Shown piece by piece: positions 2,905 through 51,090 of a stretch of 64,000 nucleotides of DNA (position 1 is its first letter; every line of letters begins with the position of its first letter). Origin of the DNA: an uncultured Hyphomicrobiales bacterium (GTDB lineage: Bacteria > Bacteroidota > Ignavibacteria > Kapaibacteriales > UBA2268); contig CAZWLN010000009.1 of assembly GCA_964634885.1 (NCBI GenBank), positions 17,735 to 81,734 on the forward strand, written 5' to 3'. Made by a program: the position numbers and the translations under genes. Below the pieces are notes generated by a model. It was not told where the DNA came from. It saw only the letters and a program-made list of their open reading frames with translations, and made no database searches.

Positions 2905-3477
2905 TTACTTATTCAGTAACGAGCCTGTTTTGACATAATTGTCAAGGAAATCGTACCATTCTTCACCGAAAGCCCTGACGAGGGCGCTTTTCAGGGACTG
3001 GTGCATCAGTACCCTGTTCCGGGCGCCGTTTTGCAGCGCTGTCCGGCACTCGTCAATCTTCTCATAGTGAAGATAGGTGCCGCCGTAGTTCTTCACCCTA
3101 ATCGGGAACAGGTGGCAGGACAAAGGTTTCCTGAAAGTGGACTTTCCGTCAAAGTATGCTTTCTCCAAAGCACACTTTGCGACGTCTCCCTCGTAATAGA
3201 CAAATACACAGTCTCGCTTGTTGATGCAAACGGTAGTGTATGCGCCGGGGTAGCCGTCCACTATCCCTTTCTTCTGTATTATGTCCAAAGAACGCTTTGA
3301 AAGATACTGTTTTGCGATTTCTGCGTTTGTCGTCAGAACGTCGATCTCTTCGTCAAGTACAGGAGCCCCGAACTCGCCTTCGAAGGTGCAGCAGGCTCCT
3401 TTGCATTGCTCCAGGTCGCACATAAAGAATGTACCCGGTATGTCTGCGTCGATTAAAATATTGTCAATTAAAAACAT
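2905..3477 (-). CDS. Cys-rich DUF3109-family protein of the kind commonly found next to rpoN in Bacteroidota
   Basis: 190-aa ORF immediately downstream of rpoN; conserved cysteine clusters (CDLEQCKGACC); family call from memory only. Confidence 0.5.
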   Translation of the reverse strand: MFLIDNILIDADIPGTFFMCDLEQCKGACCTFEGEFGAPVLDEEIDVLTTNAEIAKQYLSKRSLDIIQKKGIVDGYPGAYTTVCINKRDCVFVYYEGDVAKCALEKAYFDGKSTFRKPLSCHLFPIRVKNYGGTYLHYEKIDECRTALQNGARNRVLMHQSLKSALVRAFGEEWYDFLDNYVKTGSLLNK

Positions 3478-3629
3478 TCCATTATGTAATTATACTAAAT
3501 AAAAACTATTTATCGAAGTGAAAAATAAGAAAAATTGGTATTTATAAAAAATTCGTGCCAATTTTTTTTTCTTTTTATAAAAAAAAATTTAAATGATTTG
3601 AAAATGAAGATACTTTTAGCTAAATTAAC

Positions 3630-9925: not shown

Positions 9926-9960
9926 GCCCGGCAGAATCAATGTTCTGCCGGGCTTTTTTT
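9926..9960 (+). terminator. Rho-independent terminator hairpin plus T-run
   Basis: gcccggcagaa-tcaatg-ttctgccgggc followed by ttttttt, directly after the 9216-9893 ORF and abutting the island direct repeat. Confidence 0.6.
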
Positions 9961-10004
9961 CGAGCCAACAGCCGGACTTGAACCGGCGACCTGCTCATTA
10001 CGAA
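9961..10004 (-). repeat. Left-end direct repeat (attR-like): 44-nt copy of the 3' half of tRNA-Thr, identical to 51016-51059
   Basis: cgagccaacagccggacttgaaccggcgacctgctcattacgaa found at both 9961-10004 and 51016-51059; only the right copy is a complete tRNA. Confidence 0.8.
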
Positions 10005-29232: not shown

Positions 29233-30780
29233 TCATCCTTTCTTCTTTTTCTCTCTGAAAGCTCTTTGTTTTTCTGTCCCGGGTGACTGTTTCAACAACC
29301 TGTCAACTTCTGCCATGTTTCCATTCGAAAGTCCTCTGGCTTTCAACCTGATCATTTCGATATATTCATCCAGGGCAACCGACAACGGAAGTTCCGGCAA
29401 TGTTGTCTCCGTATCTTCTTCTTTGAGTATGTCTGTAATAAACCGTTCTGGTAAGTCATGCAGGTGAATAATACCTGTACTGAAACGCCGGAATACTCTT
29501 TTTATCCACTTCTCTAACTCCCTTATATTCCCAGGCCAATCATAATCCATAAGCTTTTCGGTCACACTTTTGTCCAGGATTATCGGCGAAGAAAGAAAAA
29601 ATTGCTTATAATATAATTGGATGAAGTAATCGATTAGTAAAGGGATGTCCTGTCTATGCTCCCGCAATGGTGGTAACAATACGACTTCATCGAACCGGTC
29701 TTTCAGATCGGGGGCAAACAGGGTAGAATCATTGACATTCTTATTGGTGGCGGCTATGATTCTGGTTCCAACTTTCGTTATCTCTGCCGAGCCAAGACTG
29801 CGCACCTCCCCGTCGTTTAAAAACCTTAGCAATGTGTTCTGGCCCTCTTTGGGCATATTACCAATCTCGTCGAGGAACAGGAACCTGTTTTCGGCTTGCT
29901 TTATTATCCCGGGACTTTCCTTATCTGCTCCCGTAAATGCTCCTTTTTTGTACCCGAACAATTCTGCTGCTATCAACTCTCTGGGCAGGGTACCGCAATC
30001 TAGAGTCAACAGGTTGACATCCGATTCGTTCCTGTACAATCTCCAGATTGAATTGGCTACTACTTGTTTGCCGGTACCTCTTTCACCTAATATCAAAACA
30101 GATGTGTTATTGTTAATGTCGTAGAGTATTTGTTCCTTGATCTCTCTAACATTGTCGGATTGGCCGATTAATTCAGGAACCAATAAGTCTAATTCGTGAG
30201 ATGCCAGTTTCTGTACCAGAGCCTTGTTCTCTCTGGTTACCAATGTAAGTTGCCGTTTAATAGCTGAAGGGGCTTCGATGTGAGGAAAGTCATCGATGTT
30301 GAGGTTGACCTCTTTGATATTCGACCTTTTGTCTATGGCAAACCTTGACTCGAATGACTGGATTAACCTGGCATTGGTGATTATACCTGCCTGGCTCAGC
30401 AATATCCAGCAGGCTGTCATTGTGGGAGTGCCCGATGTAATATTGATAATCTTCTCTGCCTGTAAAAAACCGGGGCTGGTATTCAATTCCTGGACTTTGT
30501 CCAATAAAAACGGATAGACAAGATCGTAGTCAATCGGGTTGGGCAGGCTGACAGAGACAATACAAACATTGACTGCCGGGTTTATTGCTTCCATTACAGA
30601 CATATTCTCCAAAGCAATGGAATGATAGCTGATTAGCTCGGACTTCTTGTCGGGAGTAACAAACAGGTAGACCTGTTCAATCTTCTGGGAATACTTCTGA
30701 AATATCGAGAGAACTGCTCCGTATTCGTTTGAGCCGCGCTCAATTTTATCATGATTGCCAATGAAAGAGAGATATTTCAT
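29233..30780 (-). CDS. RtcR-like sigma-54-dependent transcriptional activator: N-terminal CARF-like sensor domain plus AAA+ sigma-54 interaction domain
   Basis: AAA+ bEBP motifs (GERGTGK, ELFGYKKGAFTGA, GAFEGSAEIT-like, GNIRELE); N-terminal region aligns by eye to E. coli RtcR CARF domain (NITSGTPTMTACWILLSQAG...ARLIQS vs HITTGTHVAQICWFLLAEA...ARLIQS). Confidence 0.75.
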   Translation of the reverse strand: MKYLSFIGNHDKIERGSNEYGAVLSIFQKYSQKIEQVYLFVTPDKKSELISYHSIALENMSVMEAINPAVNVCIVSVSLPNPIDYDLVYPFLLDKVQELNTSPGFLQAEKIINITSGTPTMTACWILLSQAGIITNARLIQSFESRFAIDKRSNIKEVNLNIDDFPHIEAPSAIKRQLTLVTRENKALVQKLASHELDLLVPELIGQSDNVREIKEQILYDINNNTSVLILGERGTGKQVVANSIWRLYRNESDVNLLTLDCGTLPRELIAAELFGYKKGAFTGADKESPGIIKQAENRFLFLDEIGNMPKEGQNTLLRFLNDGEVRSLGSAEITKVGTRIIAATNKNVNDSTLFAPDLKDRFDEVVLLPPLREHRQDIPLLIDYFIQLYYKQFFLSSPIILDKSVTEKLMDYDWPGNIRELEKWIKRVFRRFSTGIIHLHDLPERFITDILKEEDTETTLPELPLSVALDEYIEMIRLKARGLSNGNMAEVDRLLKQSPGTEKQRAFREKKKKG

Positions 30781-31784
30781 TTTTTATTATTTATTGGTTG
30801 ATATTTACCTGAATTAATCTTATTAGCAAGTGCTTCATTCATTATTGTCTGAATTTTTTCAAATTTCTCATAAATTATTTTTATACTATCTTGACTATTA
30901 TTCGGAATAAATGTATCTAATCCTCTATTCAACTCAGCCCCTAGTATGTTGTTTAATGTTATATACCTTTCATGTGTAAAAAATGAACTCTTGTTACAAA
31001 AGATTAATTCTACTTTTAAATTTGAAATGTTTTCAATAATAGTACTTATCTTACTATATCTATCATCAGTAGTTTCATTATTATTTCTTGATACCTGCAG
31101 GCTTGCTAATCTTGTGATAAGTGTAAATTTAACTTTATTATTTACCAATGAAATTGCATCAGCAAACTGTTTTAGACCATTTTGATAGTTATCATTCCAT
31201 TTCTCAAAAACATTTCTATCAATCAACACTACTTCAGGGTAAGATATTTGTAATTTGAGAACATTTGACCAAAAAGATATGATTTTATTCATGCCATCGT
31301 CGACAGAACTCGGTTGGGAACAAGAATAACTTGTTTCTAAGCATTTATGATATAGTTCAGAATCATCATATTTATTCATATTTATTGTATTTATACCAGG
31401 TATATTTAAAGAACTATCGAATGTTACAATATAATGTGGTAAATCATTATTTTTTTGATTAATAGCTTTGACGTTATTAATAACCGAACATTTCTTACAA
31501 TCACTACAATCACAAACTGAATCTATTATCTCTTGTTTATCCCAGAAAAATTTTTTCCAAAGTATCTCCAATTTTTTCTTTGGCTCATCTTCGAGAACAT
31601 CCTTTAAATCTAAATATTTTTTAGATAAAGTATTATACGCTCCTTCTTCTATGCAATCAATCCAAACAGTTTGCTTAGTAATGGTGCTAAAAAATGAATT
31701 AACTCTTTGCAATAATAAGTCGGCTTCATCCTCAGTAGAAGGTATATCTAGAATACTAGAATCGATTGTAATGGTTGAAATCAT
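30777..31784 (-). CDS. Hypothetical protein (Cys-cluster CDCSDCKKC), partner gene immediately downstream of the ATPase
   Basis: 335-aa ORF overlapping stops/starts with both neighbours; no confident domain call. Confidence 0.5.
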   Translation of the reverse strand: MISTITIDSSILDIPSTEDEADLLLQRVNSFFSTITKQTVWIDCIEEGAYNTLSKKYLDLKDVLEDEPKKKLEILWKKFFWDKQEIIDSVCDCSDCKKCSVINNVKAINQKNNDLPHYIVTFDSSLNIPGINTINMNKYDDSELYHKCLETSYSCSQPSSVDDGMNKIISFWSNVLKLQISYPEVVLIDRNVFEKWNDNYQNGLKQFADAISLVNNKVKFTLITRLASLQVSRNNNETTDDRYSKISTIIENISNLKVELIFCNKSSFFTHERYITLNNILGAELNRGLDTFIPNNSQDSIKIIYEKFEKIQTIMNEALANKINSGKYQPINNKK

Positions 31785-33438: not shown

Positions 33439-33924
33439 TTAGTTAGTGAATAATTTGTTGAAATCCTTTATAAGCATTAGTACAAAAAATACCAATATAC
33501 TTCCAAATAATGTAATTATCTGCCATTTCAATAACTTGTATGTCCTTCTGCTGCATCTTTTTGAAATATTCCTGAATTTCTTGAAATTGTGCTCTTTGTA
33601 TCTCCGGTATTTCCATAAAGTAATTTTTGCGGTTATCCGAAAGTCTTTCAGCCGGTTGGTAACGCAGCAGATGCCAATAATTATTGAAGCCAATATAATA
33701 GATATGCCCAATAGGTAAACTATCGATTCGATAGTATTAAGGTTCAATGAGCTATCGTTCAGGACGCTCAATTCATAGCCGAGAATACCTATTGCAAAAG
33801 TCAGGAACAAATTGATTGTAAACGACAATTGTTTGATGCGGTAGTCCTGCCACCTGGTAAAGGACTCTTTTTTACTCTTTGTTTCTTCCACTGTTAACTT
33901 CTCTTCATTAGTTGATTGATTCAC
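33439..33924 (-). CDS. Small membrane protein (3 predicted TM helices) embedded in the defense array
   Basis: 161-aa ORF with three hydrophobic stretches; overlaps hsdS stop by 4 nt. Confidence 0.5.
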   Translation of the reverse strand: MNQSTNEEKLTVEETKSKKESFTRWQDYRIKQLSFTINLFLTFAIGILGYELSVLNDSSLNLNTIESIVYLLGISIILASIIIGICCVTNRLKDFRITAKITLWKYRRYKEHNFKKFRNISKRCSRRTYKLLKWQIITLFGSILVFFVLMLIKDFNKLFTN

Positions 33925-35075
33925 AGCTCCCCTCTGAAAGCTCTTTGCATCAGTGAATTGAAAAGGTTGTCGCTCTCGGTTAACTGTGCTTGTAGTTTTG
34001 CTTTTAGTTCTTCGATCTTTGTTACAATATCAGCAAATTTGGTTTGTAAAGTAATTGGAGGATAATTTATTGGCCATATTTTAACAATACTAGTATTAAC
34101 TACTCCGTGGGCTGACCCTACCGAATAGCCATAAAGACTACTTTTCCCAAAAGTTAAATTCATATAGAAAGCTATAAATAAAGATTGGAATTTAGTATCA
34201 GAACCAACTACAATAATATTAGCACAATTTGCACCGTCTAGTTCATATGGTACTACTGCGACCATACCCCTATTTACTCCAACTCTTGATATTAAAATAT
34301 CATTAGCATGGATTATAGAATTTTTTAATTTATTATGAAAATCTGTTGATATATAATGTAAATCTTGATAAGTGATTTTCATAGGTCTTATATTCTGAGT
34401 TCTAAGAAATGGAATACCATCCTGTCTATAACCATCAGTTGTTGGTCCAACATGCCCCACAACAATTCTATTAGTCAATTCACCGAGGTTTCTCACTTCC
34501 CAGCCCTTCGGGTTAGTCACCGGGTCTCCAAACATATCGAGAAAGACAGAACGGAGGTATTCATCGCACAATTTCAAGCTCTCACGTAGCTTCTGCCTTA
34601 TTTCGTCCGCTTTGTCAAGAATGGCGGCTATGCGGATCTGGTCCTCGAGAGAGGGGAGTAGAAGTTCCAAATTCTTAAGGTCATCTTGAGTTATCGCATC
34701 AAATGTTGAACCTCTACCACTAGAAGACAATTTAGACTCAATACTTCTAAAAAATCGAAATATAAAATTAAAGTCAACACCTTCTTTTACTCGTATTGCA
34801 CTTAATCCTCTCCCAATACATGCTTTTTGGTTACATATATTGGTTGGGCCAACTGGAGCTCTTACAGAAATAAGTATATCATTTGGTAATGCTATTTTTA
34901 AAGGGATAGAGCACCATTGTCTAATGTTTGGATAAATATAACCAAAATCAGACTTGCCTTGAAAAAAAGGTAATCCTATACAATCATTGTTATATGTTGA
35001 AGACGGTGGCGATTGACCAGCAATTATATCACAAATTTCTTTTAATTTTACTATTTTCATACTTAATTTCTTCAA
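33921..35075 (-). CDS. hsdS: Type I restriction-modification specificity subunit
   Basis: 384-aa protein with two target-recognition-domain-like halves separated by conserved coiled-coil spacers; position downstream of hsdM; typical HsdS blocks (GIPFLRTQNI..., LPSLEDQIRIA). Confidence 0.75.
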   Translation of the reverse strand: MKKLSMKIVKLKEICDIIAGQSPPSSTYNNDCIGLPFFQGKSDFGYIYPNIRQWCSIPLKIALPNDILISVRAPVGPTNICNQKACIGRGLSAIRVKEGVDFNFIFRFFRSIESKLSSSGRGSTFDAITQDDLKNLELLLPSLEDQIRIAAILDKADEIRQKLRESLKLCDEYLRSVFLDMFGDPVTNPKGWEVRNLGELTNRIVVGHVGPTTDGYRQDGIPFLRTQNIRPMKITYQDLHYISTDFHNKLKNSIIHANDILISRVGVNRGMVAVVPYELDGANCANIIVVGSDTKFQSLFIAFYMNLTFGKSSLYGYSVGSAHGVVNTSIVKIWPINYPPITLQTKFADIVTKIEELKAKLQAQLTESDNLFNSLMQRAFRGEL

Positions 35076-35833
35076 TTCAATAAATTAGTTTGACCATCTT
35101 CCAACATTGGAATATCCGGGATAGAAGCTCCTGCTTTACCTTTCATAATTTCAACAAGATATGCAATCCTTTTATTACTCATATTCCTATTATCAAAGAA
35201 TGGAGCAAGTATCAACAATGATTTCTTAGTATCCAGCTCAATTTGTTGATATTCAAAGCAATCTTCTCTTTGAAAATTTTCTTTTTGAGTAACAAACAAC
35301 TCTCTATAATCATTCCAGTGTCCAATGCCAAAACATATGATAAAAGTTGGTTTGTGTTGATTAATATACTGTAAAACTTTTTGCTTTCTTGTTTTCATAA
35401 AGTCCTTGTAGTAGTATTCCTCAGTCATTTCTAATTCTTTTAAAATTTCTGGTGACAACATATCAGTATTCTTATTTCTGCCAATTGGATATAAATTAAT
35501 TTGGAAATTAGAACCCTTTTCAAAAAATAAATATTTATTTATGTATTCTCTTGGTTTTATTTTAATGTTATTAAATGATGTAATAGTTTTTGCCATAATC
35601 GTATAAACACTTGTAAATTTACCACTAAAGCCTTTTTTATTCTTATTCTCCCTAAGTTCTGCCAAATCACTCTCATACCAATTTTCTCTCATTTCCCAGT
35701 CATAAGATTCGGAAATTTTACCAATCTTATCTATTTCGGGTACTTTTGCCTCCTCAATACCAATAAACCAATAATCACTCTCAGGATTACCCATTCCAAT
35801 ATAATTGAGTAAGTTATTACACTTGTCGTTCAC
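35072..35833 (-). CDS. Hypothetical protein inserted between hsdM and hsdS
   Basis: 253-aa ORF overlapping both neighbours by 1-4 nt; no recognisable motifs. Confidence 0.5.
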   Translation of the reverse strand: MNDKCNNLLNYIGMGNPESDYWFIGIEEAKVPEIDKIGKISESYDWEMRENWYESDLAELRENKNKKGFSGKFTSVYTIMAKTITSFNNIKIKPREYINKYLFFEKGSNFQINLYPIGRNKNTDMLSPEILKELEMTEEYYYKDFMKTRKQKVLQYINQHKPTFIICFGIGHWNDYRELFVTQKENFQREDCFEYQQIELDTKKSLLILAPFFDNRNMSNKRIAYLVEIMKGKAGASIPDIPMLEDGQTNLLN

Positions 35834-37329
35834 TACAACATCTCCACTAATTCTTCAATATTAGAAATAATTTCATTTTCCAGTGTTTTCATTTTGCTGA
35901 TAATCACAGAAGGCGCCTCATACTCTTCTTCCTTGTGGACAATTTCCTTGTACTTGTTAATAGACAGGTCGAAATTGTTAGCAACTATTTCACTTTTGTC
36001 CACAGTAAAATGCTTTTGGGTTTTGTCGTTGTTTTCAACCTCGAACCTGTTGTTCCACTTGCCAATGCAGTCAGGTATGTCGCTGCCTTCGACCGGTTGG
36101 CGTTTGTCGTCCAGGGAAAAACCGTCATTGCCCAGGTCATAGAACCAAACTCTATTGGTCTCGCCACCCTTCGTAAGTATCAGAATGGCTGTCGAAACCC
36201 CTGCGTAGGGTTTGAAAACCCCTGCCGGAAGTTTGATAATACCTTCGAGCTGATTCTTCTCGACAATTAGTTTCCTCAGTTCAATATGAGCGTTGGAAGA
36301 CCCGAACAAAACACCGTCAGGCACTATTGTGGCGCATCTGCCCCCGAGTTTTAGCATTCTGAGCATCAGCACAATGAAGAGTAGTTCGGTTTTCTTTGTT
36401 TTTACCTTGCTCAACAGGTCTTCGGCAACATCTTCGAAGTCGAGACTGCCTTTGAAAGGTGGATTGGCTAAAATAGCGTCGAAATAGTTCCCGGACAATG
36501 AAGGTTGTTTGTCGGCAAATGACTGGCTTAACGTGTCCTGGTATATAATGCCCGGGGAGTCGATGCCGTGGAGCATCAGATTCATGGCGGCAATTCTTAA
36601 CATTGTAATGTCGAAATCGAAGCCGTGGAGCAATTCTTTTTGCACATGTTCTCTGTACTTTTCGAGCAAGTCTTCCGAATAGGAAATATGTCCGTCTTCA
36701 TGTGTATATTTTCCCTTTTCAGAAGTGTATTTTACTTTGATGAATTCTCGTGTTTGCATTAGAAAACCGGCAGTACCACAAGCAGGGTCGCCGATTCTTT
36801 CGTATGGTTTTGGGTCGATAACATTGACCATAAGGTCGATGATATGGCGGGGAGTACGGAACTGGCCGTTAATACCCGCTGTTGTAAGCTTACTTAGCAG
36901 GTATTCATACAAATCGCCCTTGGTGTCGCCTTCAGTCAAAGGCAATTTGTCGATCATCTCAACGGCAGAAGACAGCAGGCTTGGTTTCTGAATCAGCAAT
37001 TGAGCGTCTGAAAGATAGACAGAAAGCCCGTTGCCAATTTCTTTAAAATGGGGAAAAACTTTATCCCGAACCAATTTGAGCATATTTTCGGGTTCAAGAT
37101 GAATAAAATTCGACCAACGTAAATCTTGATTATCAGAATTAAATTTGCCTTCGTGTTTTAGTTTTAAACGCTGAGCTTTCTTTTCTTCACGAGTTTCATT
37201 GATATCGATCAGCCGTATAAACATTAGAAATGTTATTTGCTCGATTACCGTCAAAGGATTGGTAATTCCACCAGTCCAGAATTCTTCCCAAAGCTTGTCT
37301 ATTTTACTTTTCAATTCACTATTCATCAT
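35833..37329 (-). CDS. hsdM: Type I restriction-modification DNA methyltransferase subunit (N6-adenine)
   Basis: N-terminal HsdM_N-like region, [12 protein letters not shown], catalytic NPPF ([10 protein letters not shown]). Confidence 0.9.
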
Positions 37330-40300
37330 TTATTTTCCTATGCTATTAATTGTTAACCTATTGTCTTTGAGTATGGTAAAAATCTCTTCCACCATAGTTT
37401 CATTGTTGAAAATGCCTTCAACACCTTCAGTGTCCAAAGAAGTAAATGGCGATTCGTACAGTTTTTCAAGTTTAATACACCCATACATGCCGATATAGTT
37501 CTTAAGCATATTCAGAAAAGCTATTTGATTTCCTGATAGCTCTGGATGATTTGCTACAAAGCTCTCAAAATAAGAATTTACAGCTTCTGCTTCAAGACCA
37601 ATAATTCTTCGTATTGCCAAATCCAGGTACCCCGCGGTGTCGGGATAGAATTCATAAAGAATATTAATATCAACATTTGGATATTTTGTGAGAACAAGGG
37701 AAACAAGTGAGTTAAGCTCATCCTGAGTAACAAAGGCGCCTTTTTTAATCTTTTGTAAAACAACGCTTTCATTGAACATCTGACAGAGAGCTTTTTCCAC
37801 CCTTTCTTTATATTTAATCATTTCCATACCCGGCATTTTGGGTATGTATTCCTCATGTTTAACCTTATCGGGATTCTCTGTAATATCGATTGTTTTCGAT
37901 TCGCTTATTAGTGGTACTTCAGACTCTTTGAACTGCATCAATCCACGCAATTCTTTTCTGATTTCTTCCAGATTGTTAAATTGTATCGTATCCCAATATT
38001 CAGCACTCAATACTTTTTTAATTACATCAGATTTTGTTCTTACCTGGTATAAATTCCTTTGTAGTAATGAAACTTCATTTATGATATCATCTCTGAAACT
38101 CTCAAACAAATTTGTATTTAGAATGAATTCTGTTTGTGATTGAGTAAGAAGAATATCAAACTTTACTGCTTCAATATGGCCAGCGATATTAATCCACCTC
38201 ATCAATGGAGCTATTTCATTCTTTAAAATATTAATAGTAGACTGATCGAATCGTTCAATTACACCATCTTGCTTCATCAGGTTGACTTCTCTCCACCTAT
38301 CTTTGACGGCAATAGATTTCAACGAATCCAGTGTATTAATATCTTTTTTAATGAGATCGACAATATATTTGAATTCATCTTGTTGAAACTTTTCAAGTGC
38401 GGTTTCGGCAAGTTTAATTCTCTGCAAAAACAATCTCTGGGATAAAGACATTGAGTCACTCACTTCTGCCGGTTTACAATTCAGATCGAACCATTCAAAA
38501 TTGCCCCAGTGGTCGAAAATTCTGAATTTTGTTTTATCAACCCCAAGCCCTAATAAATTAGGGCATAGCCTTGTCCCTCTTCCAATCATCTGCCAGAATT
38601 TGACGTATGATTTGATGGGTTTTGCAAATACAAGATTGACGACTTCAGGAATATCAATCCCGGTATCGAGCATATCTACCGATATGGCTATGGACAGCAA
38701 ATTGTTATTGCCTTTACCTTTGAAATCATCAATTAATTGTTCTGCTCGTGGGTCATAGTTATCTATAACCTGACAAAATTTACCGCCATACTGAGGAAAC
38801 ATTTCATTGAACAGGCTTTGCAATTGAAGAGCGTGTTTATGGCTCCGTGCGAAAATTATTGTTTTACCCGGGAGACTATCGGTCGCATCTTTAATTCCTT
38901 TCTCCATCAGATTTCTTATAATCTCACGGTTTGTATCTTTGTTGTATATAAATTTGTCTATATCATTAGAAGTATAATCGAATTCTTCAGCATTGGCAAC
39001 CTGGTCTTCGAGTTCTTTTTTTTGCTCGATGGTCAAATTGGCGTACTTTATACCTTCTCTTAAAAATTCAGTGGTATGATTAAACACTTCAAATGGCACC
39101 AAATATCCTTCTTTGACAGCCGTTTCATAATCGTAATTTGCAGTGGGGTCTTGATTGTCGCAATTAAACATAGAAAAAGTATTTCTGGCAATCAGGTCGA
39201 CAGGAGTAGCAGTTAACCCAATTTGATAGGAATCGAAGTAATCGAAAATATCCTTATAAACATTATAAATACTTCTGTGAGATTCATCGGCAATAATTAA
39301 ATCGAAGAAACCAACATCAAAAGTATCATAATACTTCAACATGGCTGGGTAGGTCGATAAATAAATTCTTTTATCTCTATTTTTATAGGTTCTGCTATTT
39401 ACAGTTGTCAGCGGAGTTGAAGGGATAAAATCGGTGAAAGCATTCTTGGCTTGTTTCCTCAATTCCCTTCTGTCGCATAGAAATAGAATTCTCTTAACCC
39501 AGTTCCCTTTCAATAGAGTGTCGCAAAGTGAAACGGCGACTCTTGTCTTACCAGTACCTGTGGCTTGAACAATAAGCGATTTTCTATTTTTCTGAGCGAA
39601 CTTTTCAATAACTCTTTTTTGTGCTTCCATTTGATAGAGCCTGTTAGCTATTGAAGGATTTGCTTCCAGATTGAGACTGTCTGTTCTGTTTTCCCTTTTA
39701 AAATGTAGGTATGTCAAACTATCTTTTGAATAAAACCCATGGATTTTTCTTGGTGGTTCGTTCTCTTTATCATTCCAAATATAAATATCAAACCCATTGG
39801 TATAAAATATTACAGGTCTTTTCCCAAACTTTCTTTCAATAGCATCAGCATAGAGTGTAGCTTGTTTTTTACCAATGTCAGGGTCTTTTGAGGTTTTTTT
39901 TGCTTCGATTACTGCCAATGGCTTGCCATCGTCACCAATGAGTACATAATCAACGAACCCTTTCCCAGTTTCCGTTGGCTGTCCGTCAACTTCATATTCT
40001 ATTTCAATATCGGAATTTTCCGATGAACCATCATTAAATGCCCACCCTGCAATAGAAAGTTGTTTGTCGATAAGGAATTGTCTTGTTTGCTCTTCATTCA
40101 GATCGAGTAAAACAGCAACTGATTTGCCTTTATTTTTAATTGTTTCGCTCTCAATATCGGTTAAAGGTGTTATACTGGCTTTTTCTTCCTTTTTATTTAA
40201 ATTTTGAATTAGTTGTTCAATGATTAATTCTTTTTTATTTAACTCTGCCTGCAATTTTGGCTTATTAATATCAGCCATTGATTTTGTTTTATCAGGCAAA

Positions 40301-40704
40301 ATGAAACTATTTATATTCTGGGGCTCGGTCTGATAAAATACTATCATTAGCCACTTAGAAATAATATATGCAATATTAAGAAGCTTTTTGGCTTCTGTTT
40401 CATTTACCGATTCACCATGAGCCGCTTTATTTCCGGACAATCTCAGAAGGTGAAGATTTGATATAATAGAACTCTGAATTTGTTCATTTTTGTTTAGAGC
40501 CTCTAATAAGGAGAAAAGATTTTTTTCTTCTAAATACTCCAATTTCAAATTATTGTATAGAACCCTTACATACTTTTCTGCAAAAGTTCTTAATTTAATA
40601 GCAGTTACAGATGAATCCAGAAGCAGATACTGTTCAGCCAATTCTCCCAGAGCTGATAATTCTGGGAGTTTTTCTTTTAAAAAAATAAAATTGTTGTCTG
40701 CCAT
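37330..40704 (-). CDS. hsdR: Type I restriction enzyme R subunit with N-terminal DUF4145-like domain
   Basis: Helicase motifs [11 protein letters not shown] (Walker A) and IIADESHRS (DEAH); 1124 aa; immediately upstream of hsdM. Confidence 0.85.
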
Positions 40705-40738: not shown

Positions 40739-40754
40739 TACAATTGGTATGCCA
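40739..40754 (-). promoter_or_regulatory. Weak sigma-54-like -24/-12 element TGGCAT-N5-TTGTA about 35 bp upstream of hsdR start (imperfect -12: GT instead of GC)
   Basis: Reverse complement of 40739-40754 reads TGGCATACCAATTGTA; spacing to hsdR ATG compatible with a promoter. Confidence 0.25.
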
Positions 40755-41401
40755 GAAAAACATACTCTGGATTTTATATAATTGTTATATTATCATAACC
40801 ATTACGATATCAATCATATACCTGCAAATTACAATTTATTTTTACATTTTTTTAAAATATTCTTTCAAGTAACGTTCGATACTATTCACAGTAACAAACG
40901 TTACCAGTCGATGCAAAAATACTAATATAAAATTATTCATATTCAAAAAAAAGAAGATGCTTAACTAGCATTACCAGTCCAATAACTAATATCCCCTTAT
41001 GGTGAAAATTGGACTTCCATCATAATGAAATATTGTTGATTACCATATCAAAATTGACCGTAACAATACAGTTATATTGATGAAGTATTCTCCCCCCCAG
41101 AATATTGGACACAAAGTATAGTTATTTTATGTCCAAGTTTCAAATTCGAGTGTAGCAGCATAAATATTATTACTACACTTGTTATCAGTATGTTGTTAAT
41201 AATACTATATCCAATAGTAATGTAGAGCTTATCGATGCTCTTTCCGCCGTCTTATAAAAAATAGGAAACGAAAAGAGTATCATCAAATCAATACATATTA
41301 ACCATCGGTCATATTCATACTCATGTTGTCGGTTCCGTATTAAGCCTGGTACCGCTTTAAGTAATCATTTATTTATATATCTTACCATACCATTGCTCAG
41401 G

Positions 41402-44400
41402 TTACTTTACTATTACAAAGCTCTTACTGATCAATTGTGTCGGAGTTCTCAGTATCACATAATACATACCAGACTCAAGAGTATCGGTATTAAATTGCAT
41501 CGATGACTCTCCCGGCTTCGGTATACCCGAAAATAGTGTCTTGATTTCCTGAGCAGTCGAATTGAACAATTTAATAGTGGTGTAGCCTTCTTCAAGAATG
41601 TTATAGTCAACTGTTACCTTTTCATTTGCCGGATTAGGAGTAATGCTTGTGATGCTTACCTTATTTTCAGAAGCAGTTACGAGCCTGGAGCCGCCTTCTC
41701 GGCATATTTCGAGCCTGATTAAACCATTATTCGTTTTGTAAATAAAACCTTTTGCCAAGCCCAAAATGCTTGTCGAATCGAGATTGAAAGCTATTGTTGT
41801 TGAATCCCTGTCACCGAGGCCTATTTCAAAAGGTATGTAGATTTTATCTCCCAGGAATATGTTCTTTGGTAAGAATAGACTTAGCTTCTTACCGAAATAA
41901 TTTGTCTCATTGAAGTGTTGACCGGCTCGAACAACACCGCTAATATCATGATCTGACATTATTGTTGCATTGAATGAAACCTCCGTATTTATTCCGTCAG
42001 ATACATCATACAAATCTTTGACAGGCATAGAAAGGTAAAACGGTACTTGCACTATATCCCCTGGCTTTGCGGTAATCGTATCAGACTTCAGTACAATCTC
42101 ATAGAGCTTGTCTAACAAGGAGAATACTGCAATGCTGTCCTGTGTATTGCATTGCTTAGTGAAAATATAGGAGCCTTTGAAACTAATATCTTCGCCAACA
42201 AATTGAACAGTAACATCTGAACTGCCACCAGCCGGTGTAGGATTGGGTTCAATTTTGCTAATAACAAACCTTGTATCGTTAAATTTAACTGGTGGATTGG
42301 GCCAATAAAGAGCTGTGTTGCCATAATTGCTTATCTTGCACTGAACCTGCCTCTGTTCACCGGTTTTGACGTCGTAAGCCAAAACAGAATCGGGGGTTAC
42401 CTCCCAATCATAGACAAGGTAATTGCCGCAAATACTCATTTCCTTAGGCGAATCGGGGGAATTGTAATAAATCATCAGTTTACTGCACACTTTGCCGGTA
42501 TCGACAGGAGTGAAGCGGATTGTCAGTTTCTTATCTTCGTGGCTTTTCAGGACGAATGGATAGGACAGGTTGTCACTGATTCTAAAGATATTATCATTCG
42601 GAGAAAACACCAGCGAATCAATACGAGCATCTGTTTTTTGGTAATTGACAATCGTTGTGAATGACTGCTCTTTGTAATCGGTTGTGTCGCACGGTTTCAC
42701 CAATTCTATAGTCTGGCCGTAACCTGCCTGGAGTTCGCACTTGACGCCTTCGCCCTGGAATGTCACTATCTCGGGAGAGCTTATACCTTTGTGATAAAAA
42801 GCATACTGGCAGGTGCTTATTCCCTGCTGGACTGGTTTGTACTCTATCCTGATATTGTGCGTATCTCCGGCTGCTATTACAAAGCTCCCGCCGCCTGAGA
42901 CTATCTCAAACTGGGCATCATCGGGGCCGAGTTCAACTGTCGAGTCAATTTGAGAGTCCGAAGCTCCCCTGTTGTAGAGTACTGCCGCTAAGGTGTCAAC
43001 TTTTTCGCCGAGGCAGACATTGATGAAATTATATGCCGGGGTTATGTTTTGGATGTTGCAGTCAAGGGCTTCTCCGGTTATATCTTTAGGAATAACGCCA
43101 TAATTGCTGTAAATATTAATTTGTGCAGTTTTGATGCCCGGAGTCTTAGGCTGGAAGCTGAATTTCACTTTCAGCTTTTCTTTTGGCTTCAGTGTAACCG
43201 GCAATGTTTGATGGACAAGTTCAAAGTCAGCCGCATCAATCCCGGAAATTCCTATTGAATCAATCCTTACATCGAAAACATCATTGTTAACAATGTAATT
43301 ATCAATTATCTTCTCTTTTGGTTCTGTCCAGTTGGCGCAGTGCTGGAGCATATCTACATCACTTGTCGTAATCTTTGGGAGAATGATTGAGAACAGGGTG
43401 TCGGACTTGTCAAGGTTTTCTATGTCTTTAACCCTGAAAATCCTAATTGTACCGTCCTCACCTCCACCTGCAATCCAGTTACTGTTTGGATGCCATGATA
43501 TATAAACTCTCCAATAATGAAATGGACTTATAAACTTAATATATTTATAACTAATTGCATCAATTATTTGAATATTACCATCACTTCCACCTATAAATTT
43601 CCCATCAGGACTATAGGCTATTGAATATCCTGAATATCCTGGAAAATCTAAATGTGTAAGTATTAATCCTGATTCCGTATCCCAAATAGTAATTCCAGTA
43701 TGCCAACCTCCACCTGCAACTTTATTCCCGTCGGGACTCCAGGCTACTGAATTAACATCATCATCATGTCCGATTAATGTCATTAGTTCGGTACCTGTTT
43801 TTGCATCCCAGATTATTATTGTCGAATCATAACTTCCGCTGGCAATTCTACTGCCGTCGGGACTCCAGGCTACTGAATTTACATAACGATCATGTCCCGT
43901 TAATGTCATTAGTTCAGCGCCTGTATTTGCATCCCAGATTTTTATTGTCCCTTCATAACCTGCGCCTGCTATTATTCTACTACCATCGGGGCTCCAGGCG
44001 ATAGAATTTACCCAATCATTATGTCCTGATAGTGTCATTATTTCGGTACCTATTTTTGCATCCCAGATTTTTATTGTCTCCCTACTTCCACTTGCTATTC
44101 TACAGCCGTCGGGACTCCATGTTACTGAAATATCATAACCATGATGTCCCGTGAATGTCATTAGTTCGGTACCTGTTTTTGCATCCCAGATTTTTATTTC
44201 CGAAAAACTTCTACTTGCTATTCTACTGCCGTCGGGACTCCATGCTACTGAATTAACCCAATCATTATGTCCCATTAATGTTATTAGTTCGGTACCTGTT
44301 TTTGCATCCCAGATTTTTATTGTTTCATCACCACTACCACTTGCTATTCTACCGTTGTCAGGACTCCAGGCTAATGAATTTACATAACGATCATGTCCCG

Positions 44401-46654
44401 TTAATGTCATTAGTTCGTTGCCTGTTTTTGCATCCCAAATTTTTATTCTTGCATCATCACTACCGCTTGCTATTCTACTGCCGTCGGGACTCCAGGCTAC
44501 TGAATTAACATCATCATTATGTCCTATTAATGTCATGATTTCCGTGCCAGTTTTTGCATCCCAGATTTTTATTGTTTCATCATCACATCCACTTGCTATT
44601 CTACTGCCGTCGGGACTCCAGGCTACTGAATTAACCCAATCATCATGTCCCATTAAGGTCATGATTTCCGTACCTGTTTTTGCATCCCAGATTTTAACTG
44701 TAGAATCATAACTACCGCTTGCTATTCTACTGCCGTCGGAACTCCAGGCTACTGAACAAACATTACTATTATGTCCCTTTAATGTCATTAGTTCGGCGCC
44801 AGTTTTTGCATCCCAGATTTTTATTGTCTCCCTACTTCCACTTGCTATTCTACTGCAGTCAGGACTCCAGGCTACTGAAAATTCATTACCATATATATCA
44901 TTTAATGTGATTATTTCACTACCTGTTTTTGCATCCCAGATTTTTATTGTCTCATAACTTCCGCTGGCTATTCTACTGCCGTCGGGACTCCAGGCTACTG
45001 ATCTAATTTCATAATCATGACCGCAAAGAGTGTCTATTACCTTAGCCGTACTTAAGTCCCAGATATAAAGGCAGTCTGAACCACCTGCGCTTACTAATTT
45101 TGTACCGTCAGGGCTAATATCTATACATTTAACAATGCCATAACCAAATATCTTTCCATCAACAAGCTTTTGTGGGTTGTCGTCCTTGTACACTTTAATA
45201 AGGCAACTGTCGGACTGCAGGTAAGGCAGCTTCCAGGTGTAGTGCAAACCGCTTGCCGCGTTGGTAATCAGCTCCCAGGTTTTACCCCCGTCGAGGCTGT
45301 ATTCTATTGACACAGTGTCGTCCATCCTGCCTTCCCAGTAAATGGTAGTGTCGGTTCCGGCAAGCAGCTTTTCGAACCCGTTTGGCGATTCAACGATTAT
45401 ACTGTCCGATGCGAGTGGGTCGTAACTCAGGAAAGAAACGACATGATTGCCGCAAAGTTCTTTTTCAATAATAATATTTCCGAACTCAGCCGAATCGACC
45501 TGTGGATTGTATTTTACCCGGAACGACCTTTCTTCTCCTGTTCCCAGGGTAAATGGCGTATTCGTGCTGCCGACAATGGAAAACGCAGGATTGGTTCGGG
45601 TAATATTTGTAATTGTAACAGGGTAGTACTCATTTTTCAAAGTAAAGGTAACAGTCGTATCGCCTGAACCTAAAGGTATCCTTTCGAACACAAATGAACC
45701 GGGAGATACATTAGTAACGATTCTCGATTTGGAATAGGCCCAGTACCTTAACGAAGCCTGGGCCGGCAAACTTTTAAGATTGACTGAAACATTACGGTAT
45801 TCATTGCATGTAGGTTCGCTTTTCCAGATAATCTCGCATCCGGCGCCACCGCTGCAACCGGATATACCGGCTAATTTTTTAAAAACCGACGTTGCTTCCT
45901 GAGCATTAGAGACATGGAAGTAAAACCCGTCGGTCATTGAAGTAATCGCATCGATGAACTCATTGGCCTGTCCGTTTATTATTACAACAAAAATCTTCGC
46001 TTTCAGTTCATTTGCCTTTTTAATAATTTCCTGTTCATTGCCTTCCGACATGCCGTCGGTAACCAGAATGATTCTTCTTGCATACTTTGCTCTCTCTGCC
46101 ACGAGCAATGCCCCGTTCAGCGGATCGATCAGGGCCGCATCGAATTTTGTGCCCCCGTTAGCTGTTAATGATTCAAATGACTTCTTCAACTGGCTTTTGT
46201 CAGTTGAAAAATCATTGACAAGGAAGTTCTTATGGTTAAAGGCAACAATTGCACATTCGGGACCTCCCGCAGGCAACATATCTATATAGATTTCGGCAGC
46301 CAGCTTTTCCTGGGGTAGCTTCTGCCCGCGTGTCGAACCGGAGATGTCCATTACCAGAATGCCGGAGTAGTTTCCACCGGGACACATCCCTCCTTCAGAA
46401 CAGTACACGCTTACAATCTCTGCTTTCCTGCCGTCTTCAACGATTTCAAAGTCATTGGGCGAAACGTCGAAAACCAGGTTGTCGTCTTTGTCGAAAGCAT
46501 AGAAATTAGCGCTGGTATAGGGGAAACCATAGGGCAGCACTTTAAAAACAGAAATCTGCTGTGCATTTGCCGATGCAATGCCAAGTATTGCGAATAATAG
46601 ATGCAAAAGCTTTTTCATACTATTCCCTATATTAATATTCAATTGGATTTTCAA
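41402..46654 (-). CDS. Giant vWA-domain / WD40-repeat (about 14 blades) / Ig-like protein with T9SS C-terminal sorting domain; true start probably M at 46620 (MKKLLHLLFAILGIASANA)
   Basis: vWA MIDAS (VMDISGST...TDGMSEG); tandem WSPDGSRIASGS...IKIWDAKTG repeats; CTD ...SGMYYVILRTPTQLISKSFVIVK. Confidence 0.8.
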   Translation of the reverse strand: MKIQLNINIGNSMKKLLHLLFAILGIASANAQQISVFKVLPYGFPYTSANFYAFDKDDNLVFDVSPNDFEIVEDGRKAEIVSVYCSEGGMCPGGNYSGILVMDISGSTRGQKLPQEKLAAEIYIDMLPAGGPECAIVAFNHKNFLVNDFSTDKSQLKKSFESLTANGGTKFDAALIDPLNGALLVAERAKYARRIILVTDGMSEGNEQEIIKKANELKAKIFVVIINGQANEFIDAITSMTDGFYFHVSNAQEATSVFKKLAGISGCSGGAGCEIIWKSEPTCNEYRNVSVNLKSLPAQASLRYWAYSKSRIVTNVSPGSFVFERIPLGSGDTTVTFTLKNEYYPVTITNITRTNPAFSIVGSTNTPFTLGTGEERSFRVKYNPQVDSAEFGNIIIEKELCGNHVVSFLSYDPLASDSIIVESPNGFEKLLAGTDTTIYWEGRMDDTVSIEYSLDGGKTWELITNAASGLHYTWKLPYLQSDSCLIKVYKDDNPQKLVDGKIFGYGIVKCIDISPDGTKLVSAGGSDCLYIWDLSTAKVIDTLCGHDYEIRSVAWSPDGSRIASGSYETIKIWDAKTGSEIITLNDIYGNEFSVAWSPDCSRIASGSRETIKIWDAKTGAELMTLKGHNSNVCSVAWSSDGSRIASGSYDSTVKIWDAKTGTEIMTLMGHDDWVNSVAWSPDGSRIASGCDDETIKIWDAKTGTEIMTLIGHNDDVNSVAWSPDGSRIASGSDDARIKIWDAKTGNELMTLTGHDRYVNSLAWSPDNGRIASGSGDETIKIWDAKTGTELITLMGHNDWVNSVAWSPDGSRIASRSFSEIKIWDAKTGTELMTFTGHHGYDISVTWSPDGCRIASGSRETIKIWDAKIGTEIMTLSGHNDWVNSIAWSPDGSRIIAGAGYEGTIKIWDANTGAELMTLTGHDRYVNSVAWSPDGSRIASGSYDSTIIIWDAKTGTELMTLIGHDDDVNSVAWSPDGNKVAGGGWHTGITIWDTESGLILTHLDFPGYSGYSIAYSPDGKFIGGSDGNIQIIDAISYKYIKFISPFHYWRVYISWHPNSNWIAGGGEDGTIRIFRVKDIENLDKSDTLFSIILPKITTSDVDMLQHCANWTEPKEKIIDNYIVNNDVFDVRIDSIGISGIDAADFELVHQTLPVTLKPKEKLKVKFSFQPKTPGIKTAQINIYSNYGVIPKDITGEALDCNIQNITPAYNFINVCLGEKVDTLAAVLYNRGASDSQIDSTVELGPDDAQFEIVSGGGSFVIAAGDTHNIRIEYKPVQQGISTCQYAFYHKGISSPEIVTFQGEGVKCELQAGYGQTIELVKPCDTTDYKEQSFTTIVNYQKTDARIDSLVFSPNDNIFRISDNLSYPFVLKSHEDKKLTIRFTPVDTGKVCSKLMIYYNSPDSPKEMSICGNYLVYDWEVTPDSVLAYDVKTGEQRQVQCKISNYGNTALYWPNPPVKFNDTRFVISKIEPNPTPAGGSSDVTVQFVGEDISFKGSYIFTKQCNTQDSIAVFSLLDKLYEIVLKSDTITAKPGDIVQVPFYLSMPVKDLYDVSDGINTEVSFNATIMSDHDISGVVRAGQHFNETNYFGKKLSLFLPKNIFLGDKIYIPFEIGLGDRDSTTIAFNLDSTSILGLAKGFIYKTNNGLIRLEICREGGSRLVTASENKVSITSITPNPANEKVTVDYNILEEGYTTIKLFNSTAQEIKTLFSGIPKPGESSMQFNTDTLESGMYYVILRTPTQLISKSFVIVK

Positions 46655-49701: not shown

Positions 49702-50769
49702 ATGGCAAGAAAGAAAAGGAGCCATACACCTGGCTCAATCTACAAGAAAAATAACAAACTTGTCATTGAATTGAAAGGCAAAAAGCTTTATACCGGCTTG
49801 AACGATACACCTGAAGGTAGAGAGAAAGCTAAATTGATGAAGGAACAAATGTATGAGCAATGGCTGATTAACAGAGGGACATTGCCGGATCATACGAAAG
49901 ATTTTATATCAGCAAAGGAAGCTTTCTTGGAATTTGTAAGTCATCTTGAGCGAAAACAACGGAGTCAGGCTACAATCAGAAATTACAAATTAGCTTTCAA
50001 GCTGATTTACAAAGAAGATTATCTAATAAACCAGAGAATAAACAATGAATACAGGATTGTGTTTGATATTCGGAGATTTGTTGACACTACAAATGTTGGA
50101 AATGTCAGCATAAACAGTTATCTCCGGTGCATTAGGTCTTACCTAAACTATTGTTATACTCAGGGATATATCAACAAAATAGATGTAATGAATTTGTTTG
50201 GGAAACCAGAAAAAGAAAAGAAACCAATTGCTTACAACGATAGAGATTTGGAAAAGATTCTCGAATACTTTTACGAAACTGATGAAGAATTTGCTTTATG
50301 GATTAGCTTTATGAGATTGACCGGATCTCGAAGTAAAGAATCAATCACCCTTACTTGGGACCAAGTGGATATTGAAAAGAGGCAAATACTGATCTACAAC
50401 AAAATCAATACAGAAAAATCTGAGATGATAATAGTATCAGATAGAGTTTTGAATATCCTCGAAAGGTTATTAGTTCTCTCAACCCAAAGGCCGAAAAATA
50501 AACATAAACTATTTCGTTGGACTTATAATGGTTTGTCCCGGCTTACCCGCAGATTCCATGATGCAGAAAAACTATTGGGAATAGAACCGACCAATGGATG
50601 TTTCCATAAGCTCAGGAAAGCTTTTGCAACCGAAATAATTGAAAATGACCTGTCGATATGGGAAGTCAAAGAACTTATGCGCCACGCTAATATCAATACT
50701 ACTCTGAAGTATTACAAAGAGAAGAACACTTTGAAACTTGTGGATGCCTTGAATAGAATCCACCATTGA
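49702..50769 (+). CDS. Tyrosine-type site-specific recombinase (phage-type integrase)
   Basis: C-terminal catalytic region with HKLRKAFAT (HxxR) and LMRHANINTTLKYY (catalytic Tyr); located about 250 bp from tRNA-Thr and transcribed toward it. Confidence 0.9.
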   Translation: MARKKRSHTPGSIYKKNNKLVIELKGKKLYTGLNDTPEGREKAKLMKEQMYEQWLINRGTLPDHTKDFISAKEAFLEFVSHLERKQRSQATIRNYKLAFKLIYKEDYLINQRINNEYRIVFDIRRFVDTTNVGNVSINSYLRCIRSYLNYCYTQGYINKIDVMNLFGKPEKEKKPIAYNDRDLEKILEYFYETDEEFALWISFMRLTGSRSKESITLTWDQVDIEKRQILIYNKINTEKSEMIIVSDRVLNILERLLVLSTQRPKNKHKLFRWTYNGLSRLTRRFHDAEKLLGIEPTNGCFHKLRKAFATEIIENDLSIWEVKELMRHANINTTLKYYKEKNTLKLVDALNRIHH

Positions 50770-50890: not shown

Positions 50891-51015
50891 AAAAATATTT
50901 TAAATGACAAAAAATAGCTTTAAATGGCAAAATTCTCTGTTCCCCTTCCAACGACATTGAAAACGGGAACACAGCAATTATGCTTGAATTGCAAGGAGTT
51001 ACCTCTTTTGCCTTT

Positions 51016-51059
51016 CGAGCCAACAGCCGGACTTGAACCGGCGACCTGCTCATTACGAA
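51016..51059 (-). repeat. Right-end direct repeat (attL-like) overlapping the 3' half of the intact tRNA-Thr
   Basis: Identical 44 nt to 9961-10004. Confidence 0.8.
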
Positions 51060-51090
51060 TGAGCTGCTCTACCAACTGAGCTATGTTGGC
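51018..51090 (-). tRNA. tRNA-Thr (anticodon CGU), 73 nt, CCA not encoded
   Basis: Manual cloverleaf: acceptor GCCAACA/UGUUGGC, D-arm GCUC-AGUUGGUA-GAGC, anticodon arm GCUCA-UUCGUAA-UGAGC, T-arm GCCGG-UUCAAGU-CCGGC, discriminator U. Confidence 0.9.

Follow-up and report, generated by a model that had tools for sequence, protein, structure and literature searches.

What does a sigma-54 activator with a CARF sensor domain regulate when its gene stands last in a restriction-modification (R-M) operon? The question is raised by a 64,000-nt stretch of DNA (hereafter the window; positions 17,735 to 81,734 of contig CAZWLN010000009.1) from an uncultured bacterium of the Kapaibacteriales (UBA2268), in which eight genes form an operon of ~11.5 kb on the reverse strand (40704 to 29233), in the order hsdR, hsdM, a gene for a 253-residue protein, hsdS, a gene for a predicted 161-residue membrane protein, an NsnB-like ATPase gene, a gene for a PLD-like protein and the activator gene. 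An original prediction, made from the letters of the window, had raised the possibility that this activator turns on anti-phage genes through sigma-54 in response to a nucleotide or RNA-damage signal. Comparison with related loci supports sigma-54 control of the defence genes, as a predicted promoter of the type found beside the family's activators, with a predicted enhancer of the matching subtype, lies ahead of hsdR; we put at roughly two in three the probability that the CARF-gated activator acts on this promoter through paired palindromes, which would make the locus a self-activating defence operon upon signal.

By domain content, motifs and predicted fold, the activator is a sigma-54-dependent bacterial enhancer-binding protein (bEBP). 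Its central module matches Sigma54_activat (PF00158; 1.1e-44; residues 204-352) and AAA_lid_14 (5.9e-19) in Pfam and possesses a Walker A motif (GERGTGK), the sigma-54 contact loop (GAFTGA, residues 280-285) and a Walker B motif (LFLDEIG), all of which are invariant or nearly so in an alignment with 87 homologues. An AlphaFold2 (AF2) model of the full-length protein, built from this alignment (mean predicted local distance difference test score, pLDDT, 90.7), begins with a Rossmann-like domain, which a long linker helix (residues 173-200) joins to the AAA+ module, and ends in three helices (470-485, 489-495 and 502-514); the AAA+ module superposes on those of FleQ and NtrC1 (target template modelling score 0.88, root-mean-square deviation 2.2 Å). 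Pfam HTH_8 does not match the activator, one homologue (P0087) has a precomputed HTH_8 match, and the C-terminal motif A..GNM.EVDRLL is kept among homologues. For the full-length model, all Foldseek matches were AAA+ proteins; therefore, the CARF domain was modelled on its own. The N-terminus scores above the Pfam cut-offs for RtcR (PF06956; 32.0 bits against 23.1; residues 24-164) and Cas_Csm6_CARF (27.7 bits against 27.5), and the best 50 Protein Data Bank matches to an AF2 model of residues 1-205 (pLDDT 85.5) are all CARF proteins. Thus the CARF domain, which had originally been aligned by eye, withstands both profile and fold searches, and the reported integrity of the AAA+ module and presence of rpoN, with all three sigma-54 domains, are borne out as well.

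Among PADLOC profiles, the activator is matched best and at nearly full length by RtcR_PspF2--CARF_AAA_HTH (PDLC01995; 263.5 bits; E 1.1e-78; residues 4-478), ahead of the sister profiles RtcR_PspF1 (228.5 bits) and RtcR (144.9 bits), and on this profile evidence it is a member of the R-M-associated RtcR_PspF2 CARF-AAA-HTH family; the names of these profiles we take to correspond to the published CARF families. In a collection of 5.8 billion proteins, ~110 of the 120 best matches are near full-length homologues (38-61% identity), derived, where the source is named, from metagenome-assembled genomes (MAGs) of Ignavibacteria, Calditrichota, Marinimicrobia and Bacteroidetes, some of them annotated 'RtcR family'.

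The predicted promoter, TGGCATACCAATTGTA, is located 35 nt before the hsdR start codon (ATG) within a 697-nt intergenic gap, and has the form TGGCAT-N5-TTGTA, with the GG of the -24 element and TTGT as its -12 element. When the window is scanned with a matrix built from 26 sites of relatives, the window site being left out, TGGCATACCAATTGTA scores 16.5 and ranks first of 128,000 positions (both strands of 64 kb); at this score, ~0.15 matches would be expected across the window and 0.0008 within the hsdR intergenic region. Upstream of it are two palindromes 22 nt apart, GTAACGTTTGTTAC (40904-40891) and GTATCGAACGTTAC (40882-40869), which begin 150 and 128 nt before the promoter and together span 115-150 nt upstream of it. 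GTAACGTTTGTTAC is the sole exact GTAAY-N4-RTTAC sequence in the window, and the paired pattern was found in none of 100 shuffles. The subtype of the pair, GTAAC-N4-GTTAC, is the one that goes with the C-terminal tail of this activator, GNMAEVDRLLKQSPGTEKQR (GNMAEVDRLL..GTEKQR). Since the top matrix match, the palindrome pair and the matching subtype coincide, the element is best read as a family promoter with its enhancer. A third, imperfect palindrome-like element, GGTAATGCTAGTTAAG (40965-40985, reverse strand), lies ~60 nt upstream of the pair and might be an additional weak activator site. Another sigma-54 match, at 33852-33837 upstream of the ATPase gene, was rejected: it falls inside the plausible open reading frame (ORF) of the membrane protein and has no palindromes nearby.

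The same elements recur beside the activator in its relatives. The CARF-domain profile retrieved 99 further loci, 19 from genomes that represent species (almost all of which carry the label of MAGs of the Fibrobacteres-Chlorobi-Bacteroidetes, or FCB, group) and 80 from metagenomes. A generic sigma-54 matrix detects TGGCAY-N5-TTGYW in the gap downstream of the activator gene at ~27 loci, many of them with TTGT or TTGA instead of TTGC as the -12 element. With the family matrix, a site is found 62-160 nt past the activator stop codon for 36 of the 61 full-length non-redundant activators that have enough downstream DNA, compared to 0.5% of 1,855 control windows, and the distance has a sharp mode at 86-90 nt (~88 nt). 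Between the stop codon and the promoter are two 14-bp palindromes, GTAAY-N4-RTTAC, always 22 nt apart (27 of 39 loci, versus 16% of shuffled controls). Strict pairs number 19 in the 865 kb scanned, 18 in relatives and the one in the window, and for 17 of the 18 in relatives a strong promoter follows 70-114 nt on. The half-site varies with the activator: GTAAC-N4-GTTAC accompanies the C-terminal motif GNMxEVDRLL..GTEKQR, GTAAT-N4-ATTAC accompanies VDRLL..VEKAR, and GTTATAA-type repeats accompany ADRLLGLKxGTxKQW. Such clade-wise covariation is what would be expected of an operator and its DNA-binding domain. Modules of enhancer and promoter are also placed upstream in some relatives, before the ATPase gene (L016 and L020) or between the activator and the ATPase gene (L063), and L024 and L089 have second modules on the upstream side of the activator, at a distance of 2-9 kb. 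No description of cis-elements of this family was found in the literature searched, which did not extend to the 2020 classification of CARF proteins by Makarova et al. (NAR); the conserved predicted enhancer and promoter beside the family's activators are the new element of this analysis.

Several observations weigh against the reading of the hsdR promoter as the activator's target. TGGCATACCAATTGTA does not possess the canonical C of the -12 element and ranks 22nd in the window by the generic sigma-54 matrix, which alone would have suggested a chance occurrence, had the family matrix not superseded it; the description of this element as weak in the original prediction holds for the generic matrix only, although the element itself is present and of the family type. 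In the window, the distance from the start of the first palindrome to the promoter is 150 nt, compared to 70-114 nt in relatives, and the module, usually downstream of the activator, here heads the operon that the activator ends. The count of 36 in 61 is partly circular because the matrix was derived from the same relatives, for which the generic matrix had already found sites, and the ORFs of the related loci were called by a crude home-made script. Two R-M-linked relatives in which the operon head is in view (L039 and L044) have no such promoter there. Finally, strictly inducible expression of hsdM would endanger the host, so that a second promoter has to be assumed.

Some of these observations would also suit an orphan activator, which has lost the family's downstream promoter and targets, is transcribed merely by readthrough of the R-M genes and has no regulatory target nearby, the site before hsdR having arisen by chance. 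The activator stop codon is separated by 18 nt from a convergent OmpA-family gene, leaving the canonical promoter position ~88 nt downstream empty, and the -12 element before hsdR is off consensus. We nevertheless consider an orphan improbable: chance would have had to bring together before hsdR, in the proper orientation and sequence, the window's top promoter match and its sole palindrome pair, with a palindrome subtype that fits the C-terminal motif of the activator, whose ORF is intact with all catalytic motifs. In the DNA ahead of the hsdR enhancer, tblastn found no remnant of the 3' end of an activator gene, such as would mark a transplanted module.

If the activator does control the hsdR promoter, its C-terminal helix-turn-helix would bind the two GTAAC-N4-GTTAC-type palindromes; upon occupation of the CARF domain, or upon relief of inhibition by other means, the activator would assemble an active ring, which would spend ATP to open the closed complex of sigma-54 at the promoter; and transcription would rise over the whole operon, including hsdR, hsdM, hsdS, the two small genes, the NsnB-like ATPase gene, the gene for the candidate PLD-like nuclease and the activator gene itself. 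Being encoded in its own operon, the activator would close a positive-feedback loop, giving a defence circuit inducible by a signal, presumably during infection, that uses the chromosomal rpoN. Until a ligand or partner arrives, the CARF domain would keep the AAA+ module off; this is suggested by the linker helix and by the behaviour of RtcR, which reportedly becomes constitutive when its N-terminal domain is deleted (work attributed to Genschik et al. in 1998). The circuit would also require a basal source of HsdM, HsdS and activator that is independent of the activator: HsdM must protect the chromosome, and therefore an activator-independent promoter must exist. The sigma-70 scan of the operon does not point to a usable basal promoter; its 66 promoter-like sites versus 47 expected are uninformative in DNA so AT-rich.

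The packing of the operon is consistent with a single transcript, and the activator is indeed its last gene, as had been stated. From hsdR to the activator, the intergenic gaps are 0, -1, -4, -4, +11, -1 and -4 nt, and the operon strand has no terminator-like site inside the operon. HsdR, HsdM and HsdS, recognized by Pfam, NCBIfam and PADLOC, constitute a complete type I R-M set (Table 1). The predicted 161-residue membrane protein has no family match in the same three databases; of two public annotations, one includes its gene. Upstream of hsdR on the same strand are genes for a WD40 protein (41402-46654) and an OmpA-family protein (46632-48770).

Table 1. Positions of the operon, its predicted control elements and associated features in the window.
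Feature	Coordinates (nt)	Strand	Evidence
Predicted enhancer (upstream activating sequence): GTAACGTTTGTTAC and GTATCGAACGTTAC	40869..40904	(-)	
Predicted sigma-54 promoter TGGCATACCAATTGTA	40739..40754	(-)	Best family-matrix match in window
HsdR, type I R-M restriction subunit, 1124 aa, N-terminal DUF4145	37330..40704	(-)	Pfam ResIII, EcoEI_R_C, HSDR_N; PADLOC REase_I 4.1e-289
HsdM, type I R-M methyltransferase	35833..37329	(-)	Pfam N6_Mtase 5.9e-62, HsdM_N; PADLOC MTase_I 1.5e-174
253-aa protein between hsdM and hsdS	35072..35833	(-)	Sub-threshold DUF6942 match only (Pfam)
HsdS, type I R-M specificity subunit	33921..35075	(-)	Methylase_S 3.6e-29; PADLOC Specificity_I 1.3e-86
161-aa predicted three-helix membrane protein	33439..33924	(-)	Three hydrophobic stretches in translation
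NsnB-like ABC/AAA_15 ATPase, 547 aa, C-terminal DUF3696 helix	31784..33427	(-)	Pfam AAA_15 1.9e-17, AAA_21, DUF3696 1e-07; PADLOC NsnB 161 bits, E 1.2e-47
335-aa protein with C-terminal PLD-like (MIT_C) domain	30777..31784	(-)	MIT_C 25.9 bits, cut-off 25, aa 202-312 (Pfam)
Activator (CARF, sigma-54 AAA+, C-terminal three-helix region), 515 aa	29233..30780	(-)	Pfam, NCBIfam, PADLOC, AF2
Activator CARF domain, aa 1-170	30271..30780	(-)	
Activator AAA+ module including lid, aa 204-452	29425..30171	(-)	
Activator C-terminal three-helix predicted DNA-binding region, aa 470-514	29239..29373	(-)	
rpoN (sigma-54), 579 aa	1145..2884	(-)	Sigma54_AID, Sigma54_CBD, Sigma54_DBD all present
Tyrosine integrase, at tRNA end of island	49702..50769	(+)	
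tRNA-Thr	51017..51090	(-)	

The two genes that precede the activator look like an NsnB/NsnC pair. NsnC combines an N-terminal adaptor domain with a C-terminal effector. According to a 2025 survey of Menshen systems, NsnB is an ABC ATPase that ends in DUF3696, an MIT_C-like PLD domain is found in some NsnC effectors (the PB-PLD1 variant), and Menshen frequently lies within type I R-M or BREX loci (PMC12065111). The ATPase of the window shares the NsnB profile match and the DUF3696 tail, and the next gene encodes an MIT_C/PLD-like protein comparable to the PB-PLD1 variant of NsnC, with a motif (THERYITL) where the H-x-R-Y-I motif of that family sits; this protein probably serves the ATPase as its nuclease partner. 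The locus differs from Menshen in that the Pfam match of the 335-residue protein is borderline, with no PADLOC match and no word-search homologue other than itself, and in that its third member is a CARF-type sigma-54 activator. NsnA (ParB/DUF262) has no match among the eight operon proteins in Pfam, NCBIfam or PADLOC; therefore, we do not file the pair as Menshen.

Based on related loci, the activator is part of a recurrent cassette of NsnB-like ATPase, PLD-like protein and activator. Of 90 non-redundant activators, 57 have at least 1.5 kb of upstream DNA; in 18 of these, one of the three genes before the activator, on its own strand, encodes an NsnB-like ATPase, usually followed by a protein of 290-350 residues, some of which match MIT_C, whose gene overlaps or abuts that of the activator, and Hsd genes are found within six genes upstream in 9. 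The closest homologue among the matches listed (P0002; 61% identity) has the same three-gene cassette adjoining BrxA/B/C, and in another relative (L005) the activator directly precedes YjiT/YjiV-like genes of Druantia III type. Thus, the activator is packed into one operon with the R-M and ATPase genes, as originally claimed, and belongs there to a cassette rather than being a loose addition.

Membership of this cassette might suggest that the CARF-AAA+ protein acts mainly at the protein level, as a sensor or partner of the ATPase and PLD-like protein in place of the NsnA of a Menshen-type system, with activation of transcription secondary or absent. The three genes, with overlaps of 1 and 4 nt, are probably translationally coupled, the operon has no recognizable NsnA, and the CARF domain of RtcR is reported to bind RtcA and RtcB, the products of its own operon (PMC9650030). 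Against such a role stand a nearly invariant GAFTGA loop, a predicted DNA-binding tail, and a predicted enhancer and sigma-54 promoter kept at fixed spacing beside the gene, and the ATPase/PLD pair is missing in many relatives; we therefore regard a mainly protein-level role as distinctly improbable.

A transcriptional role for the activator leaves the choice of signal among several candidates. The nearest solved CARF structures, by sequence profile as well as by AF2 model, belong to Csm6 proteins that bind cA6: a profile made from residues 1-205 matches Csm6 6TUG with an E value of 1.2e-11, and, CARF folds being marked by conserved motifs after strands 1 and 4, HMMER pairs the motifs GNHD and NITSGTPTM, which are invariant or nearly so within the activator family, with IGNTD and NVTSGTPQM of Csm6; the top structural match is Enterococcus italicus Csm6 with a cA6 analogue (6TUG; E 4.4e-9), followed by Streptococcus thermophilus Csm6' with cA6, and the folds of Cad1 and Cam1 also match. 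A cyclic oligoadenylate such as cA6 is thus a candidate ligand by analogy with these structural neighbours. RNA ends with 2',3'-cyclic phosphate are a candidate by the precedent of RtcR, whose ligand is tRNA halves with such ends (PMC7790460); given the proximity to cA6-binding Csm6, they should not be assumed. The signal may also be a product of the adjacent ATPase/PLD pair or a partner contact with it.

An elaborate form of the circuit would have the CARF domain sense either a cyclic oligoadenylate, made by a type III CRISPR system or another cyclase of the cell, or a nucleic-acid product of the ATPase/PLD pair, and set off through sigma-54 a self-amplifying burst of restriction endonuclease and Menshen-like nuclease, as a transcriptional second line of defence that resides on a mobile island and is wired to the host rpoN. 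We put this forward as a tentative and on balance unlikely scheme; no cyclase is visible in the 64-kb window. If a cyclic oligoadenylate were the signal, the TTGT -12 element, common in the family, might leak at a basal level and so supply methylase and activator, an idea that leans on what is reportedly known of -12 mutants.

That the protein is simply an RtcR controlling an rtcBA locus elsewhere in the genome, with an incidental place behind R-M genes, is highly improbable: although the DNA inspected is 64 kb of a 120-kb contig, the RtcR domain order is shared, Pfam RtcR matches the N-terminus and the NCBIfam RtcR equivalog (NF038308) aligns over residues 26-455, this alignment scores 203.8 bits against a cut-off of 650, PADLOC RtcR scores 145 against 263 for RtcR_PspF2, RtcA and RtcB are absent from the top-25 listed families flanking ~90 relatives, and a predicted enhancer and promoter of the cognate type lie ahead of hsdR. 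Because its ~204 bits fall so far below the threshold, the activator is not an RtcR equivalog. The label 'RtcR-like' in the original prediction should therefore give way to that of the R-M-associated RtcR_PspF2 family; what the protein shares with the activator of rtcBA in E. coli and Salmonella is the order of CARF, AAA+ and predicted helix-turn-helix and the predicted function of sigma-54 activator. The protein differs from RtcR also in that its CARF domain is nearest to cA6-binding Csm6 and that its neighbourhood, as had been noted, has no RNA-repair genes: Pfam scans of the larger ORFs of the window identified no RtcA or RtcB family.

The regulatory idea is not new. Makarova, Anantharaman, Grishin, Koonin and Aravind described in 2014 an R-M-linked CARF family and proposed that its members are sigma-54 activators sensing ligands derived from infection (PMC4012209), and Bell et al. 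in 2024 proposed the same for RtcR homologues encoded at the front of superoperons that combine CoCoNuT, type I R-M and Druantia III (PMC11090510). With the R-M-associated family of 2014, the present protein has in common a near full-length profile match, adjacent type I R-M genes and no rtc link; here, however, the activator gene comes last in the R-M operon instead of ahead of its targets, and the predicted enhancer and promoter, of the family type, stand at the operon's start. It is like the RtcR homologues of CoCoNuT superoperons a CARF-type sigma-54 activator co-directional with stacked defence genes including type I R-M, but is encoded at the 3' rather than the 5' end, and in MAGs of the FCB group rather than Pseudomonas; association with CoCoNuT itself was rejected for the window, in which no McrBC-like CnuB/CnuC or CnuH genes were found. 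Csa3, a CARF-wHTH protein described as a cA4-responsive transcription factor of CRISPR loci (PMC8699464), likewise couples a CARF sensor to DNA binding (here predicted) and a nucleotide signal to transcription of defence genes. Unlike the activator of the window, which would use ATP-driven activation of sigma-54 from a distant enhancer, Csa3 has no AAA+ module and is not described as sigma-54-dependent.

The locus is of wider interest for the control of defence. The role of this activator family has been a bioinformatic prediction since 2014, and the cis-regulatory detail makes the prediction directly testable, supplying a defined promoter, two 14-bp operator palindromes, a matched activator and ~40 natural variants whose operator subtypes covary with the DNA-binding motif. 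The association of the activator with the NsnB/NsnC-like pair hints at the source of the signal. To our knowledge, most anti-phage systems are treated as constitutive, and the few regulators known (BrxR/CapW-type WYL proteins, Csa3) are simple repressors or activators. If the proposed circuit is real, these regulators would be joined by a CARF-gated activator of sigma-54, a switch that is driven by ATP, responds to a nucleotide or RNA-damage signal, should be tightly off when unactivated and feeds itself once on.

The operon is carried by a 41-kb region with ~33-37% G+C, compared to 45-51% in its flanks. A 47-nt direct repeat (9958-10004 and 51013-51059) brackets this region and copies most of the 3' half of tRNA-Thr; together with the integrase at the tRNA end, these features indicate that the region is an integrative genomic island at tRNA-Thr. 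Besides the R-M/activator operon, its cargo includes an RHS protein, large surface proteins and a 1750-residue WD40 protein. By the G+C profile, rpoN lies in the higher-G+C core genome; thus the island would bring the activator and its cis-elements and rely on the sigma factor of the host.

In relatives, the families encoded upstream of the activator include AAA_15/DUF3696, MIT_C, Methylase_S (HsdS), AbiEii and BrxC, and those encoded downstream include UvrD/PIF1/RecD-like helicases, PD-(D/E)XK/Cas4-like nucleases, HNH, NERD, RNase T and reverse transcriptases (pooled Pfam results); PADLOC labels for downstream genes include the retron-type RT-TIR, RT-Toprim and RT-protease, NERD+UvrD and several candidate systems. 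In several relatives, RT-TIR XII, RT-Toprim I-C, RT-protease XI (E values down to 1e-125) or NERD+UvrD is found within three genes downstream of the activator, and control by sigma-54 and CARF may extend to retron-like systems. The first gene past the activator-linked sigma-54 promoter in 17 relatives (for example L064:2024-2356, L061:7135-7452 and L074:1534-1848) encodes a protein of 91-160 residues with two CxxC pairs, zinc-ribbon-like and with no Pfam match, often followed by a PD-(D/E)XK nuclease of 215-240 residues; this small family may be an inducible effector or co-regulator.

A further sigma-54-like site, TGGCACGAATTTTTTA (3545-3560, reverse strand), has the third best family-matrix score in the window (14.2) and is intergenic, 68 nt upstream of a DUF3109 gene (2905-3477) that is immediately followed by rpoN. 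Judged by this site, rpoN may be partly under sigma-54 control; a 2025 survey of sigma-54 regulons mentions rpoN in the sigma-54 regulon of Dokdonia, a member of the Bacteroidetes (PMC12316311). Besides the WD40-repeat protein on the island (41402-46654, reverse strand), a second large one, of 696 residues, is encoded in the core genome (6948-9038, forward strand). The gene for the 2155-residue RHS-repeat protein (10393-16860) is followed by three consecutive genes for proteins of ~340-370 residues (16857-20006, forward strand) that match no Pfam family; the two that were compared are paralogues (43% identity overall), and their first 60 residues, which by eye include an N-terminal hydrophobic stretch resembling a signal peptide, are nearly identical.

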